Below are positions 10,182-28,893 of a stretch of 64,000 bases of DNA, piece by piece. This stretch comes from Candidatus Berkelbacteria bacterium. GTDB taxonomy: Bacteria > Patescibacteriota > UBA1384 > JACPKC01. Where the stretch lies: the NCBI GenBank assembly GCA_016187225.1, contig JACPKC010000010.1, positions 67,541-131,540 of the forward strand, given 5' to 3'. Under the pieces are notes generated by a model, which did not search any database, was not told the DNA's origin, and saw only the letters and a list, made by a program, of their open reading frames with translations. The translations under genes were made by a program, and so were the position numbers. How positions within the stretch are numbered: the stretch's first letter is position 1; every line of letters begins with the position of its first letter.

Positions 10182-10750
10182 GTTCTAGCTTATATATTCC
10201 AGTCATCTTGGGGACGATTCGTCCCGGACGTCTTTCAGAGCGAGTGGCGAGGCTTATTTATACCGAGTTGACAAAACTCTCAAATATTCAAACTGAACTC
10301 ATTGACATTCGTGCTTTGGATTTTGATTTCAAAAATGAAGGTCCGAGCGCCCGCATGCCTAAATTTTCTCGCCAAATGTGGCAGATGCACGGGTTAATTA
10401 TCGTGGCGCCTGAATATAATCACAGCTATCCTGGAAGTCTTAAAATGATTATGGATACCAATCTGGCAGAATATCGCGACAAAGCTGTCGGGCTCGTTGG
10501 GGTTTCAGATGGACCTTGGGGAGGCGCGCGCTTGGTTGAAAATTTGATCAACTACACGCAAACACTTGGCCTCAAGCCGCTTCGCACCGCGCTCTATTTT
10601 CCTCAAGCAGAGAAAATCATTGATCCAGAAGGGCAATTGGTCAATCCAAACTACTTGCCGAGAATAAATCGATTTTTCCAAGATCTTATCCTCCTCGCTC
10701 AAACTTTGGCGCCTATTCAAAAACACGCATCAAAGATAGAAGCACTATGA
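10178..10750 (+). CDS. NADPH-dependent FMN reductase-like flavoprotein
   Basis: Flavodoxin-like N-terminus (IPVILGTIRPGRLSERVA) and LIIVAPEYNHSYPGSLK motif of the FMN_red family. Confidence 0.55.
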   Translation: MSSSLYIPVILGTIRPGRLSERVARLIYTELTKLSNIQTELIDIRALDFDFKNEGPSARMPKFSRQMWQMHGLIIVAPEYNHSYPGSLKMIMDTNLAEYRDKAVGLVGVSDGPWGGARLVENLINYTQTLGLKPLRTALYFPQAEKIIDPEGQLVNPNYLPRINRFFQDLILLAQTLAPIQKHASKIEAL

Positions 10751-12486
10751 GCTCACTGGAACGTCACTGGTTAGCGCCCGATCGCGTTCACGCTGATCTC
10801 GTTCGTCAACTTCTGGCGAATCGTTCGATTACCGATGAAGAAAAATTCTTTAATCCGGATTTTGAACGAGACAGCCATGATCCGTTTCTCTTAACTGGCA
10901 TGGACAAGGCAATCTTGCGAATTCAGCAAGCGCTTTCAGTAAAAGAAGTAATCGCAGTCTTTGGCGATTACGACGCCGACGGCATTCCGGGGACTGCCCT
11001 GCTGGTTAAAATTTTGCGGTCTCATCAGGCAACCGTTATTCCCTACATTCCCAATCGTGAGAGGGAGGGCTATGGCTTAAATGAAGCCGCTTTACGGCAT
11101 CTAAAAGATCAAAAGGTTGCCCTAGTGATCACAGTTGATCTTGGAATTACGAATAGGCATGAAGTCAAATTTGCGACCGAATTAGGTCTCGATGTGATTG
11201 TGACCGACCACCACCACATCGAGGCTCAACAGCTCCCTGACAAGGCGATCGCTCTTTTGCATCCCGCTCTGCCGGGTTCGCGCTACCCTTTTGCCAATTT
11301 GGCGGGCGGCGGTGTTGCTTGGAAGCTGACTCAAGCGCTTCAACGCACAACCGGAATTCCTTCCCTTGCACAACTTAAGTGGTGGTTCGAGCTCCCAGCT
11401 ATTAGCACCGTTTGCGATATTGTTCCAATCGTCGATGAAAATCGGATGATTGTTCACTTTGGTATGAAAGTTCTGGCGCAAACTCGCAATGAGGGTTTGC
11501 GGGCACTTTACAAGACGGGTGGAATTGATTCCACCCGTCTCACAGAGAGAGTGATTGGTTTTCAGATCGGCCCTCGCCTGAACGCGCCGGGGCGGATCGA
11601 TCATGCGGCTCTCGCGCTCGAACTTTTATTAACAGAAGATTCTCTTCAAGCCCAGGAGATTGCCGCTCGGATTGAGCTCCAAAATCGCACTCGACAGGAG
11701 CAGTTGGAAGCGATGGTCAATTCAGCGCGTCAAGAAATCTTACAGAACAAATACTACGATCAGGCGGCAATCGTACTTTTAAATGAACATTGGTCGATAG
11801 GTCTAATTGGACTAGCCGCCTCGCGCCTAGTCGAACAGTTCCATCGCCCAATTATCCTGCTTGGCGCCTATGGGAAAGAAGCGAAGGGTTCAGGACGGAG
11901 TATCGACGGTTTCAATTTATTCGGAGCCATTCATGCTCAAAGCCGATTTTTAACGAGTTATGGCGGACACGAAAAGGCGGCTGGATTTCATCTGCCGATT
12001 AAAAATGTCAACAAATTCAAGGCTCGATTTATTGAACATGCGCGGATACATCTCACGTCCGACCAACTTTTGCCGACGCTCAAAACTGACGCTGAAATCA
12101 AACCTGATGAAATCACCAATGAGCTGGTGACGAACCTCATGCGTTTCGCGCCTCATGGGCCGAGTAATCCAAAACCGCGCTTTATCATCGGACCGCTCAC
12201 GATTGCGTCAGTGAAAGCTGTTGGCGCCGAAAGTCAGCATGTTAAGTTCAGTTTCAATGAGGGCGCACCAAATCAGCTTGAGGCGATTGGTTTTCGATTG
12301 GGTGAAAAAGCGAGGAGCTATACATCTCACGACCGTATTTATATCGTTGGGTCGCTCGAGTTCAACGAGTGGAATGGTCTTGACCGAATTCAAATTAAGG
12401 CCGACGATATTAAACTGGCTCAAGCGTGGGAGATAGAACAGAAATCGAGCGATAACTTGCTTTTTGATACGATAAACAAAAGTTAA
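10747..12486 (+). CDS. recJ: Single-stranded-DNA-specific exonuclease RecJ
   Basis: DHH motifs (VFGDYDADGIPGTALL, VTDHHH); DHHA1 GGHEKAAGF; length 579 aa. Confidence 0.85.
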   Translation: MSSLERHWLAPDRVHADLVRQLLANRSITDEEKFFNPDFERDSHDPFLLTGMDKAILRIQQALSVKEVIAVFGDYDADGIPGTALLVKILRSHQATVIPYIPNREREGYGLNEAALRHLKDQKVALVITVDLGITNRHEVKFATELGLDVIVTDHHHIEAQQLPDKAIALLHPALPGSRYPFANLAGGGVAWKLTQALQRTTGIPSLAQLKWWFELPAISTVCDIVPIVDENRMIVHFGMKVLAQTRNEGLRALYKTGGIDSTRLTERVIGFQIGPRLNAPGRIDHAALALELLLTEDSLQAQEIAARIELQNRTRQEQLEAMVNSARQEILQNKYYDQAAIVLLNEHWSIGLIGLAASRLVEQFHRPIILLGAYGKEAKGSGRSIDGFNLFGAIHAQSRFLTSYGGHEKAAGFHLPIKNVNKFKARFIEHARIHLTSDQLLPTLKTDAEIKPDEITNELVTNLMRFAPHGPSNPKPRFIIGPLTIASVKAVGAESQHVKFSFNEGAPNQLEAIGFRLGEKARSYTSHDRIYIVGSLEFNEWNGLDRIQIKADDIKLAQAWEIEQKSSDNLLFDTINKS

Positions 12487-25084: not shown

Positions 25085-25671
25085 TTCTTGAGATTCTAAT
25101 CATCGCGGCGATCATTGGCATGTTTATTATTTTGGCGCGGCGTCTGCCCGATGCACTTAAAGGTGAACAGGGTTCATTGCCGCCTCAAAACACACCCGCT
25201 CGTCCAGATTTTTTTACTAGAGCTCGAATTTGGTGGAAGACTGCTAAGCGAGAACAGTTGCGCCCGGCAAAATCACCAGTGGCTGTCGCTCAATCCGTCA
25301 AAGCGCCGAGCGAAGTGCTGACCGAAGATGTGCTCTTAAGAGAAGGCGATACTTACATGCAGGAGGGTAAGCTCAAGGAGGCCGAGCGGGCATTTTTAAG
25401 GGCGGTCGCCAAAAATCCTAAAAACCCCAAACTTTATAATCGCCTGGGTGCGATTTATCTTAAACAACGTAACTATTCAGATGCGCTCCAGGCATTTGAA
25501 GCCGCTCGCGATTTGGATTCGAGCAAAGCCTCGCGCCACTATAACGTCGCTCTCGCCGCCTGGCAGATGACTAATCTTTCCAAGGCTCGCCACTCGATTG
25601 CTCAAGCGATTAGCCTCGATCCGGTTTCGGCTAAATACCAAGAGCTTAAGCAACAGATTGAAGCGAAGTAA
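25081..25671 (+). CDS. Membrane-anchored TPR-repeat protein
   Basis: N-terminal TM, then at least three TPR-like repeats (AFLRAVAKNPKNPKLYNRLGAIYLKQRNYSDALQAFEAA). Confidence 0.55.
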   Translation: MILEILIIAAIIGMFIILARRLPDALKGEQGSLPPQNTPARPDFFTRARIWWKTAKREQLRPAKSPVAVAQSVKAPSEVLTEDVLLREGDTYMQEGKLKEAERAFLRAVAKNPKNPKLYNRLGAIYLKQRNYSDALQAFEAARDLDSSKASRHYNVALAAWQMTNLSKARHSIAQAISLDPVSAKYQELKQQIEAK

Positions 25672-26668
25672 TTTGTCCCTCGAGCAATTCAATGAGTTCG
25701 GATTCGTTTTCGTCAGCCTCAATCTTGAGAGATTCAAGATGAGCGAGAAATTCTTGACCCTGCCGCGCAACCTCGTCGCCAGTTGCGTAATTCAGTTTTG
25801 GATCTAAAAATTGCCGGTTACCAATTTTCATTGATATATATTCTCGATAAAAATACTCATTACTCTCTGCGTTCACTAAGAGTGTTTGGACCATTGAGTG
25901 TAGTTCTTCTTGGTGCTGTTTGAAATATTCTTCGATAAAAATAAACTCTTGCGCATGGCGCGCAAGTCGCGGCAAAGAATTTCGTAAAATATCCCAGATT
26001 AAGGCGTGGGATTTGCGTTTTTGAGGTGGAGCAAAGGTGCCATCTTCTTGAATCATAAGCGTTGGTTCAATGTAAATACCCGAAGTTTGATTCACCTCAT
26101 CTTCATTATTGAGCGCTTCTTCAAGCACCAATCGCCATTCCTGCCGAGCAGTTTCAAGAAAAGCGATCTGCTCCGTTGCTTTCCACAACCTGCCTTCTAC
26201 CGATGATTCTGGCTTTTTTATCACTTTCTTGACGCGCAACATATCCACATAGAGTTTTTCTTGGTTACGGATCTTTTCCAAATGCAGATTAAACTGTTTC
26301 TCGGCGATCTCTTGGTTGAACCAAGTTTTTGTGCCATGAGGAATGTCGCCCTGGAATGGCCCAACTTCTTCAATGTCATGCGTTGTCAGGAGTAGGGCAT
26401 AAAATTTTCTGTCGATTTTAAGCTCCGGAACGCCGGCGTGGCCTCGCAACTTATTCTCGCGCGTCAAACATCCAAGGCCGCGTCGCAAACTGCCCTTGTG
26501 ATGAGTGGCCACCGTTCCTTCATGAGGGTAGGGCGCCTCGCCATGAACATAAGGCGCGTAGCGTTTTTCTGTTTGCGCCGCCGGTGAATAAGCAGTTTCC
26601 TTAAGAAATTCCTCTTCTTCAGGCGTAAAGATAAATTGTTCAGGTGAAAATTTTCTCGATCCCTCCAT
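25646..26668 (-). CDS. Hypothetical protein, possible HD-domain phosphohydrolase
   Basis: H...HD spacing (HHKGS...LLTTHDIEEVG...DIPHG) reminiscent of the HD superfamily; otherwise unassigned. Confidence 0.35.
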   Translation of the reverse strand: MEGSRKFSPEQFIFTPEEEEFLKETAYSPAAQTEKRYAPYVHGEAPYPHEGTVATHHKGSLRRGLGCLTRENKLRGHAGVPELKIDRKFYALLLTTHDIEEVGPFQGDIPHGTKTWFNQEIAEKQFNLHLEKIRNQEKLYVDMLRVKKVIKKPESSVEGRLWKATEQIAFLETARQEWRLVLEEALNNEDEVNQTSGIYIEPTLMIQEDGTFAPPQKRKSHALIWDILRNSLPRLARHAQEFIFIEEYFKQHQEELHSMVQTLLVNAESNEYFYREYISMKIGNRQFLDPKLNYATGDEVARQGQEFLAHLESLKIEADENESELIELLEGQITSLQSVA

Positions 26669-26705
26669 CCCACCTCCTTTAGTTACCTAAAAAATAACAA
26701 ATATT

Positions 26706-26779
26706 TGGCAGGAGCTGGAGGAATCGAACCACCGACCGCGGTTTTGGAGACCGCTGTTATACCACTTAACTAAGCTCCC
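26706..26779 (-). tRNA. tRNA-Trp (anticodon CCA)
   Basis: Cloverleaf with anticodon stem GCGGT/ACCGC, loop CTCCAAA, T-loop TTCGATT; one T-T mismatch in the T-stem; 3' CCA encoded. Confidence 0.75.
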
Positions 26780-26789
26780 TTTCTAATTG

Positions 26790-26978
26790 TTAGGTTCGCG
26801 GTTTTGGATTTGGCAATTTTGTCTCGTTATGTTGAGTGTGTTTGCGGCACCAAGTGCAGTATTTTTCAAGCACAAGCTTATCAGTTGTGTTCACAACATT
26901 TTTTGACACCACATAGTTGCGTCGCTTACATTCGACACAAGTGAGATTAAATTTTTGTCGTTTGCCTTTTTTTGCCAT
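26790..26978 (-). CDS. rpmG: 50S ribosomal protein L33
   Basis: [27 protein letters not shown]...[12 protein letters not shown] zinc-ribbon L33; start trimmed to MAKKGK. Confidence 0.8.
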
Positions 26979-27010
26979 ATTCTTCCTTTCTTTGTCTTTT
27001 TCTACAAAAC

Positions 27011-27085
27011 TGGAGCCCACGGGCGGATTTGAACCGCCGACCTATTCCTTACCATGGAATTGCTCTGCCTCTGAGCTACGTGGGC
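27011..27085 (-). tRNA. tRNA-Thr (anticodon GGT)
   Basis: Cloverleaf: acceptor GCCCACG/CGTGGGC, anticodon stem ATTCC/GGAAT, loop ATGGTAA, T-loop TTCAAAT, CCA encoded. Confidence 0.8.
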
Positions 27086-27086
27086 T

Positions 27087-27173
27087 TGGTGCTGGGGGTA
27101 GGATTCGAACCTACGAAGGCGCTGGGCCGTCAGATTTACAGTCTGATGCGTTTGACCGCTTCGCTACCCCAGC
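27087..27173 (-). tRNA. tRNA-Tyr (anticodon GTA) with long variable arm
   Basis: Acceptor GCTGGGG/CCCCAGC, anticodon stem TCAGA/TCTGA, loop CTGTAAA, 17-nt variable arm, T-loop TTCGAAT, CCA encoded. Confidence 0.8.
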
Positions 27174-27181
27174 TTGTTATC

Positions 27182-27256
27182 TGGAGCCACCTGTCGGATT
27201 TGAACCGACGACCTTCACTTTACAAAAGTGTTGCTCTACCGCTGAGCTAAGGTGGC
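27182..27256 (-). tRNA. tRNA-Thr (anticodon TGT)
   Basis: Acceptor GCCACCT/AGGTGGC, loop TTTGTAA, T-stem GTCGG/CCGAC; A27:A43 mismatch in the anticodon stem makes the register slightly ambiguous. Confidence 0.65.
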
Positions 27257-27326
27257 AGGCAATTCTCCAGAAAAATAATACTAGCAAGGTAGAGAGGAAT
27301 ACTCAATGATGGGGGAGCTTATTTTA

Positions 27327-27391
27327 TACACTCTACGAACGTTAAATGATTAGAGAGTGTCTAGATACTCATTTAACGTTCGTAGAGTGTA
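27327..27391. promoter_or_regulatory. Perfect 23-bp inverted repeat (TACACTCTACGAACGTTAAATGA / TCATTTAACGTTCGTAGAGTGTA) with 19-nt spacer, carrying symmetric extended -10 boxes for divergent transcription
   Basis: The right arm runs into TGTATAAT followed by TTGACA-17-TATATT upstream of the + gene; the reverse complement of the left arm runs into TGTATAAAAT, which faces the minus-strand tRNA operon. Confidence 0.55.
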
Positions 27392-27454
27392 TAATTGACA
27401 GAAGTGGAGTATTCTGATATATTGCTAATGTACGAAGTGTTCTATGGAGGGAAA

Positions 27455-27961
27455 ATGGAAAAGAAGGATAAACAAAAAGACTTTCAACGTCTTTTCGATG
27501 AAATCGAGTTGCAAATTTTGTATGCCGAAACTCCAATTCAACTTTCTTCAGCGCTTGCAAAGATTACAAAAAACAATCGCTTAATCCAGCGAAATTTACA
27601 TCGTCTATATGATATCGCAAGCCCGGCACGGATTCTAGGGTTAGTCTTACGCGGTTACGAAATTCCTGATGCTCTAACGCGTCTAGAATCAAATCGTTCT
27701 TTGCTCGATCTAAATAGAACCCTAGAGACTCTGTCGAGAACAGCGCTTAAGGAGCAAATTTGGCTCATGCTGGCGCAACAACGTGAAGTTCTGCTTGCTC
27801 AAATAGAACAAGATTTAGAGACACTTGTGCTTAGGTCGTCTGATCAGCGAGCGATTGCAAGTAGAAAACAAATTTTACTTGCAACCTACGAGCTAATCCA
27901 GGAAAATACAAAAATTGCAGTTGAAAAGGTTTTTGGGCGCGCTTTGTCGGTGGAGGGGTGA
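27455..27961 (+). CDS. Hypothetical all-alpha protein (about 168 aa)
   Basis: ATG with RBS GGAGGG; predicted helical, no recognisable motif; preceded by a consensus sigma-70-like promoter. Confidence 0.45.
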   Translation: MEKKDKQKDFQRLFDEIELQILYAETPIQLSSALAKITKNNRLIQRNLHRLYDIASPARILGLVLRGYEIPDALTRLESNRSLLDLNRTLETLSRTALKEQIWLMLAQQREVLLAQIEQDLETLVLRSSDQRAIASRKQILLATYELIQENTKIAVEKVFGRALSVEG

Positions 27962-28370
27962 TGATAACCGTTATTGAGGAATTTGAAGAACTGATTGACC
28001 ATGGTCACGAGCATTTTGCGTGGATAGAACGCTTTATTGCGATCTATCTTTTTCATTTTGTGATCAATGTTCTAGCCTAAGGGGCTATCCCGAACAAGAC
28101 AGTTTTTCTTCGTTTCAGGTAACCGGCTGAAAACTATTATTCTTCGACTCTCCGTTTTACGGCATTTTTTGAATGTCTCAAACAAGAGCCAGAAGTATAA
28201 ACCCGTCAGTGCGGGCAGATTTTGTTATCGCGAGTGAACCGTAGCGATCCTGGTAGATTGTCGCGGTTGCAACCTCGTAATTTTCAGGATTGCTTCGTCG
28301 TCCTTGGCTCCTCGCAATGACGACAATGAGAAAGCCCTGATAAATAGGGAAACAGGGGATTGAAGGTGGC

Positions 28371-28389
28371 GTGGATAACTGTGGATAAC
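28371..28389 (+). promoter_or_regulatory. Two tandem DnaA-box-like 9-mers (cGTGGATAA, TGTGGATAA), centres 10 bp apart
   Basis: The second is a perfect reverse-complement match to TTATCCACA and the first is 8/9; both lie in a 930-bp ORF-free region with an AT-rich tract nearby. Confidence 0.35.
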
Positions 28390-28893
28390 TTTCACAATGG
28401 GGGAGTGAAAAGGGGATGCCGCGCCTAAACTGTTTAGGCGATTATATGGTGCATGAAAAAGTTTATAAGAGGGGAGTAAAGATTATTTAATGCTAGGGAA
28501 GTGCAAATTTTTTTTATTGTGTGTAATTTTTTATCCTACAAACTCTCCCCCGCTTTCAGCTTGTCGTCGTAAGTCATCCAATTTTTGATAGGCGCATGTT
28601 GCGTACGCTAAAAAACTCATTGATATTTTAGAAATAAAATACTACTCCCCTGCTCCAAATTTTTGCATCATTTGAGATCGTTAGGAAATTTATTTTCTGC
28701 ACCTCGAAAAGAGCGCCAGCGACGCTTTTGCAGAGAAGTCCTCGACTATATAAATAATTCTCGATGCGCTTCGCTTACTCGAACAAGAATACTTTTTAAC
28801 CATCAAAAACTTTCGACACGCCCGGACAAGAACCCAAGGCCAGTCTTGAGCAAAACATTTCTTGCTAATGGGCGGGAGACTTAAGACAGAGAG

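Follow-up and report, generated by a model that had tools for sequence, protein, structure and literature searches.

A perfect inverted repeat between a tRNA-rpmG operon and a Berkelbacteria-specific gene as a probable inverted duplication of a conserved promoter-proximal element

The window analysed here, a 64,000-nt stretch of a metagenome-assembled Candidatus Berkelbacteria genome, contains a long perfect inverted repeat between a minus-strand tRNA operon and a plus-strand protein-coding gene. What is this palindrome, and how did it come to lie between two divergent transcription units? The initial annotation had read its two arms as symmetric extended -10 boxes for the two units, and had also considered an operator shared by them or a cruciform-prone element. 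To answer the question, the extent of the repeat, the promoters beside it and the corresponding regions of related genomes were compared. The features first needed are the following.

26706-27256, minus strand: cassette of tRNA-Thr(tgt), tRNA-Tyr, tRNA-Thr(ggt), rpmG (26790-26978) and tRNA-Trp, inverted relative to most relatives
27324-27349: left arm of the repeat, an exact reverse-complement copy of the 26 bp of the right arm, absent in the related locus L012
27350-27368: spacer of 19 nt (13 nt when the arms are taken as 29 bp at 97%)
27369-27394: right arm of the repeat, which aligns with the element upstream of TTGACA in ten orthologous loci
27455-27961, plus strand: 168-aa gene (NCBI HYW32_03260), member of a Berkelbacteria-specific family with an all-helical model
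27961-28080, plus strand: 39-aa ORF, overlapping the stop codon of the 168-aa gene by 1 nt

The repeat and the units that flank it

The two 23-bp arms first noted, TACACTCTACGAACGTTAAATGA at 27327-27349 and its exact reverse complement at 27369-27391, are both present, and the perfect repeat is longer than had been noted, extending over 26 bp on each side (27324-27349 and 27369-27394). If one mismatch is allowed, the arms grow to 29 bp (97%; 27324-27352 and 27366-27394) with 13 nt between them. The whole repeat, arms plus spacer, covers 71 bp. Within the spacer, AGAGTGTCTA (27354-27363) is a 9/10 direct repeat of the right-arm end, and the spacer region also holds an off-centre 16-bp quasi-palindrome, GAGTGTCTAGATACTC (27355-27370). 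The earlier judgement that such a repeat is unlikely to arise by chance was borne out: none of 100 dinucleotide-preserving shuffles gave a match at ≤3 mismatches. It is the longest, and the sole perfect one, among the inverted repeats within 120 bp in the window, and a search for further copies of the 23-mer detected no third copy in the 64 kb at ≤3 mismatches. As single-stranded DNA the repeat folds at -27.2 kcal/mol (z = -9.8 versus shuffles). A scan of 27324-27394 for intrinsic terminators gave none, the stem being A+T-rich and lacking a downstream T-run, and in Rfam the repeat gave only sub-threshold matches to generic-hairpin microRNA precursors (29 bits versus a gathering threshold of 86, and 28.5 versus 90). 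Because both promoters (see below) point away from the repeat, the hairpin is expected to be absent from any transcript.

The placement of the repeat between two divergent transcription units was confirmed, as was the composition of the minus-strand operon, tRNA-Thr(tgt)/Tyr/Thr(ggt)-rpmG-tRNA-Trp; tRNAs were the only Rfam matches in the window. The 168-aa gene, on the other hand, had been called a hypothetical orphan, a label that no longer fits. A single-sequence search with its product returned only the gene itself; tblastn on contigs fetched via L33 homologues recovered orthologues at 32-43% identity, and a profile search added further ones. The gene belongs to a conserved Berkelbacteria family with 23-43% protein identity. 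An ORF of 33-49 aa follows the ortholog in six relatives (L002, L003, L005, L014, L016 and L017). In members of the family, seen only in Berkelbacteria-like contigs, the motif LRGYExP is invariant and EQFWLMxAQQ is conserved. The AlphaFold model of the 168-aa protein was confident and all-helical (pLDDT 89, pTM 0.84). Since a PDB fold search with this model gave no significant match (best E = 0.56; no helix-turn-helix-like match), and the family had no match in Pfam or NCBIfam, the predicted fold may be undescribed.

The orientation of the tRNA cassette differs among relatives. Relative to the same flanking orthologous genes, which are common to the window and L003 (delta', TPR, the 340-aa gene, the 168-aa gene and the PKD protein), the cassette in the window is inverted with respect to that of L003 (2702-3305). 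L012 (72-278) has the orientation of the window, and eight other relatives have cassette and 168-aa gene pointing the same way, which makes the inversion a derived state of the lineage of the window and L012. In the window, 37 nt free of any terminator (26669-26705) separate tRNA-Trp from the start of the minus-strand 340-aa gene (25646-26668), and transcription of the tRNA operon may now run on into this gene. Where the cassette is uninverted, relatives carry a perfect 14-bp terminator hairpin after tRNA-Trp (L003, 3305-3336; L017, 424-454). On the other side of the 168-aa gene, about 930 bp (27962-28893) lack any ORF longer than 73 aa, versus 80-210 bp in relatives, and this stretch had no match in Rfam or among plasmids. 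Two DnaA-box-like sites stand in tandem here, TGTGGATAA (28370-28388), and a run rich in A+T lies near 28500-28535. A replication origin near 28370-28388 was considered and rejected, as there is no GC-skew turn and the gene orientation does not fit.

Promoters of the two divergent units

The two units have promoters of their own.

27395-27423, plus strand: sigma-70-type promoter of the 168-aa gene, with TTGACA at 27395-27400, 17 nt, and TATATT at 27418-27423
27278-27306, minus strand: predicted promoter of the tRNA operon, with TTGAGT at 27306-27301, 17 nt, TGc, and TAGTAT at 27283-27278

The TTGACA-17-TATATT promoter had already been noted, two positions upstream of its correct place (as 27393-27421); it is real and conserved in ten loci, with 11/12 consensus matches and a TG before the -10. 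On the minus strand, TTGAGT-17-TGc-TAGTAT is the best sigma-70-type site upstream of tRNA-Thr(tgt). It lies outside the left arm, its -10 ends 21 nt before the 5' end of tRNA-Thr, and its TGcTAGTAT (27286-27278) is a true extended -10. The same type of promoter tops the scan at a similar distance in four relatives (L002, TTGTAC-17-TACAAT; L003, TTGTCT-17-TAGAAT; L004, TTGTAG-17-TACAAT; L012, TGgTATGAT). The tRNA-operon site and its counterparts in the four relatives thus resemble known extended -10 (TGnTATAAT) promoters. In L003 (3405-3419), L012 and L017, the leader of the ortholog, from the -10 to the start codon, shares a conserved CAACGTAGGAGGG that extends past the ribosome-binding site; the leader of the window is different.

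Could the arms nevertheless act as mirror-image -10 boxes, TGTATAAT on the right and TGTATAAA on the left? The repeat does lie between two divergent units, TATAAT (27390-27395) and TATAAA, its mirror image, both make good -10 hexamers, and in most relatives a TAnnnT-like hexamer (TATGAT, TATAGT or TATACT) ends on the first T of TTGACA. In L012, the minus-strand tRNA -10, TATGAT, mirrors the TATGAT directly before the TTGACA of the other gene through an 8-bp perfect inverted repeat, AATCATAC (290-297) and GTATGATT (368-375), although about 0.4 such repeats are expected by chance in this region. The details of the arms argue against this reading. An extended -10 has TG at -15/-14, one base before TAnnnT. 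In TGTATAAT, which had been described as a perfect TGn extended -10, the TG abuts TATAAT and is out of register for TGnTATAAT: positions -15/-14/-13 read G/T/G instead of T/G/n, so that the TG stands at -14/-13. The minus-strand TGTATAAAAT next to the left arm is present as noted, but the arm supplies no extended -10 there either. Nor does a -35 hexamer lie 16-18 nt upstream on either side; the hexamers 17 nt upstream, ACTCAT for the right arm and AATCAT for the left, each match TTGACA at 0/6 positions. With the TG one base too close and no -35, the arms differ from extended -10 promoters on both counts, and the promoter scan listed no promoter that uses either arm. The -10-like hexamer of the right arm can be accounted for by its parts, the conserved half-site TGTAT, then two variable positions and the T that opens TTGACA, and L017 reads TGTGAT at this position, without the essential second-position A. 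Better promoters, conserved across relatives, stand at 27395-27423 and 27306-27278. The proposal of symmetric extended -10 boxes is accordingly abandoned; we infer that neither arm is the -10 of either transcription unit, and the tRNA operon, as far as its sequence indicates, does not need the left arm for its promoter.

The element upstream of the -35 hexamer and its inverted copy

If the right arm is not a -10 box, what is it? Ten orthologous upstream regions were anchored on the -35 hexamer for comparison. All ten have an exact TTGACA, a 17-nt spacer, a TAnnnT -10 and a GGAGG ribosome-binding site. Over the 28 bp upstream of the -35, the mean information content in these ten loci is 0.84 bit per position, compared to 0.29 bit further upstream and 0.43 bit in the promoter spacer. 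A MAFFT alignment recovered the same conserved block. The right arm ends at the base immediately before the -35 hexamer and is, judging from these alignments, almost exactly the window's copy of an ancestral promoter-proximal element of ~28 bp. With the transcription start taken as ~27430, the element spans about -63 to -38 and is centred near -50.5.

The closest relatives have the element as a compact quasi-palindrome of 26 bp, AyACAT-N4-CG-N2-CG-N4-ATGTAT, separated from TTGACA by 2 nt. Symmetric pairs number 10/13 in L012 (ATACATAAAACGT/TCGTACTATGTAT), 11/13 in L003 (ACACATAGTACGT/ACGTTCTATGTAT) and 9/13 in L017 (ATACATTGTGCGT/TCGTATAATGTGT); among the window's own 26-mers, a symmetry of at least 9/13 has a background frequency of 0.0013. 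Dyad symmetry above background is thus found at one fixed position in these three loci, which are also the only ones among 25 fetched loci that match the exact quasi-palindrome pattern. The corresponding sites of the window are the following.

27367-27392, plus strand: the window's ortholog of the 26-bp operator-like site, ACTCATTTAACGT/TCGTAGAGTGTAT, with 7/13 pairs symmetric
27326-27351, minus strand: inverted second copy of that site, apparently created by duplication

The distance of 2 nt to TTGACA is kept in the window, L012, L003, L017, L002 and L005. In the distant relatives L002, L005, L006 and L015, the conserved bases are kept and the symmetry is lost. The element follows the gene, not the tRNA cassette, being present in every cassette arrangement seen: with the tRNA-L33 cassette directly upstream and co-directional (L003, L017 and L013), with another gene intervening before the cassette (L002, L005, L006 and L015), with the inverted cassette (the window and L012), and in L014, whose fetched stretch has no tRNA genes.

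On the basis of its sequence, the conserved element is most likely a putative operator for a dimeric DNA-binding regulator of the promoter of the 168-aa gene. As with the operators of dimeric factors beside -35 hexamers, a 26-bp quasi-palindrome stands at a fixed distance of 2 nt and is conserved despite protein identities of 23-43%. The likeness has limits, since the site is predicted from sequence, its symmetry is lost in distant relatives, and its head-to-head duplication in the window departs from the ancestral state. The loss of symmetry in distant relatives, where the bases themselves persist, means that the element could alternatively be an asymmetric, UP-like promoter element. No recognisable regulator gene lies beside the site. 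Autoregulation by the 168-aa product has no support, because the product has neither a Pfam or NCBIfam match nor a helix-turn-helix-like match in the PDB.

Among known operators, CIRCE, the HrcA operator, has the consensus TTAGCACTC-N9-GAGTGCTAA. The outer arm ends of the repeat, TTATACACTC ... GAGTGTATAA, resemble it superficially. Unlike CIRCE, however, the arm ends have an extra base per half, and the outer 10-mers stand 51 nt apart versus a 9-nt spacer. Relatives have ATACAT/ATGTAT without CACTC/GAGTG, and the downstream gene is not a chaperone gene.

Motifs derived from the locus were also searched for elsewhere in the window. AACGTTCG-N5-TGTATA, AYACAY-N4-CG-N2-CG-N4-RTGTRT and ATACAY-N3-ACGW were enriched over shuffles, and all extra matches of the half-site-like motifs fall inside plus-strand ORFs. 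Sites of the half-site-like motif AYACAY-N3/4-ACGA-N-CG occur at 634-652 and 12319-12337, with more at 1039, 12046, 46741 and 51852; those at 634 and 12319 encode the same peptide, Y-T-x-H-D-R, in the ORFs 481-1647 and 10747-12486. A regulon of binding sites in the window was set aside, as the extra matches are all coding and point to coding bias or a paralogue motif. TGTATAnTTGACA was likewise dropped as a general promoter feature, its sole other match in the window having 2 mismatches, which is the chance level.

The left arm has a different history. It lies 19 bp from the source element, and the copied stretch stops exactly at the edge of the -35. The two operator-like sites stand head-to-head with their centres 41 bp apart, about four helical turns, which puts the centre of the left site about -67.5 from the predicted transcription start of the tRNA operon. 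The closest ortholog of the 168-aa gene (43% identity, 181 aa) is carried by L012 (GCA_016198525), in the arrangement of the window, with the ortholog on the plus strand and, diverging from it on the minus strand, tRNA-Tyr and tRNA-Thr(tgt). The intergenic region there is 146 bp versus 198 bp in the window; it lacks the long repeat, and only a 12+12 bp dyad was found. Because L012 has the same divergent arrangement and no long repeat, the left arm is, from this comparison, read as a lineage-specific addition. Beyond the block of operator and promoter, the window and L012 share no alignable intergenic DNA, and because 26/26 bases of the two arms match amid such unalignable DNA, the left copy appears to be young. 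Alternatively, the arms could owe their perfection to selection or hairpin-templated correction, not to youth.

L012 bears directly on the notion of a palindromic operator. The initial annotation had tied the palindrome to both units, and had named relatives that keep the units without it as evidence to the contrary; L012 is such a relative. Taking the right arm as an operator remains reasonable, given its conserved dyad abutting the -35, but a single operator coordinating the tRNA/L33 operon and the gene is at odds with a locus that has both units and no long palindrome. Together with the register and -35 evidence given above, this makes it unlikely that the arms are mirror-image -10 boxes or one shared operator.

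Wider sampling of relatives added little. By its L33 (84% identity), L009 is the closest relative, but its 729 bp stop short of the repeat region. A scan of genome contigs for more relatives returned only L002 and L005, already among the fetched loci. In metagenome contigs, a protein-pattern scan gave no relatives, and a DNA-pattern scan gave 8 chance matches, none with a homologous gene nearby.

Origin of the palindrome and what it may mean

We consider it probable that the palindrome arose recently, and in this lineage alone, as an inverted duplication of a conserved cis-element. In the course of events that we propose, a dimeric regulator would bind the conserved element at the promoter of the 168-aa/39-aa operon, and a short-range replication template switch at the pre-existing quasi-palindrome would have made an inverted copy, leaving two head-to-head operator-like sites between two divergent promoters. 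Template switching at quasi-palindromes is an established mutational mechanism, able to make short inverted copies (PMC7202029, PMC9435742). As in the cases described there, a short inverted copy adjoins its source at an imperfect palindrome, a long perfect palindrome has taken the place of a weak dyad, and the copy is missing from a related lineage (PMC7202029, PMC9435742). The locus agrees with this mechanism in that the copy adjoins its source, the ancestral dyad is present and the sister lineage L012 is without the copy. It differs from classical quasi-palindrome template switches, which correct a few bases within the arms, in that a 26-bp copy was added with a 19-nt spacer. In this genome, the event is reconstructed from its product rather than observed, and no simple fold-back path giving exactly this junction could be derived from the present sequence.

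The extra copy may allow cooperative binding, may extend the reach of the regulator toward the tRNA operon, or may be neutral; most likely it is neutral or nearly so. A stronger version holds that the head-to-head pair forms a bidirectional control module that also acts on the tRNA-Thr/Tyr/Thr-rpmG-tRNA-Trp operon. The putative regulator, normally governing only the 168-aa/39-aa operon, would then gain the tRNA operon through the new inverted site, perhaps by looping over four helical turns or through cruciform extrusion under the supercoiling of divergent transcription. We regard this as distinctly unlikely; if true, the locus would offer a view of regulatory rewiring very soon after the template-switch mutation behind it.

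A purely structural role is very unlikely in our estimate. According to the twin-domain model, negative supercoils accumulate between divergent promoters, and a cruciform or hairpin selected to absorb or sense them could tune both units. The repeat sits exactly between the divergent promoters, its arms are perfect and its stem is very stable (-27.2 kcal/mol, z = -9.8). Spacers of 13-19 nt, however, disfavour cruciform extrusion, and the spacer here is of that size. L012, in the same divergent arrangement, lacks the long repeat; no transcript is expected to contain the hairpin; and copying of an older conserved element accounts fully for the arm sequence.

Still less is to be said for a remnant of a mobile element, whether MITE- or REP-like or made of abutted transposon ends, or for a junction scar of the inversion of the tRNA-L33 cassette, both of which we hold to be highly improbable. 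In favour of such origins, the arms terminate in TA/TA, as a TA target duplication would leave them, tRNA clusters are common rearrangement sites, and the right breakpoint of the cassette inversion must fall within an interval that also holds the repeat. Dispersed copies, by which MITE or REP elements are known, are lacking at ≤3 mismatches in the 64 kb, no match was found in collections of viral contigs, phage records or plasmid records, and the right arm is orthologous to a conserved promoter element, hence not inserted DNA. The inversion scar is rejected, because L012 shares the inversion but not the repeat; moreover, at 43% protein identity, a neutral scar that old would not still match at 26/26 bases.

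An assembly or sequencing artefact is scarcely credible: chimeric inverted duplications do occur in amplified or long-read data and the source genome was assembled from a metagenome, but the repeat spans just 71 bp in the interior of a contig of 320,597 bp, and a second assembly pipeline (Logan, run SRR12113420, L001) yielded an identical sequence over 3734 bp with the repeat included, an agreement that is not fully independent because the two assemblies probably share reads.

The repeat is thus real and striking but of a known kind, neither a pair of extended -10 boxes nor a mobile element. If its reading as an inverted duplication is right, the palindrome exemplifies a short template-switch event that left an inverted duplicate of a regulatory site in a very small bacterial genome, and represents no new kind of promoter or mobile element. 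The more useful by-product is the conserved element of 26-28 bp that abuts a consensus promoter across Berkelbacteria. This element and its operon are the parts most deserving of follow-up: the element is one of few candidate operator motifs seen in uncultured Berkelbacteria, and it marks a clade-specific, predicted strongly expressed two-gene operon that stays beside the tRNA-L33 cluster.
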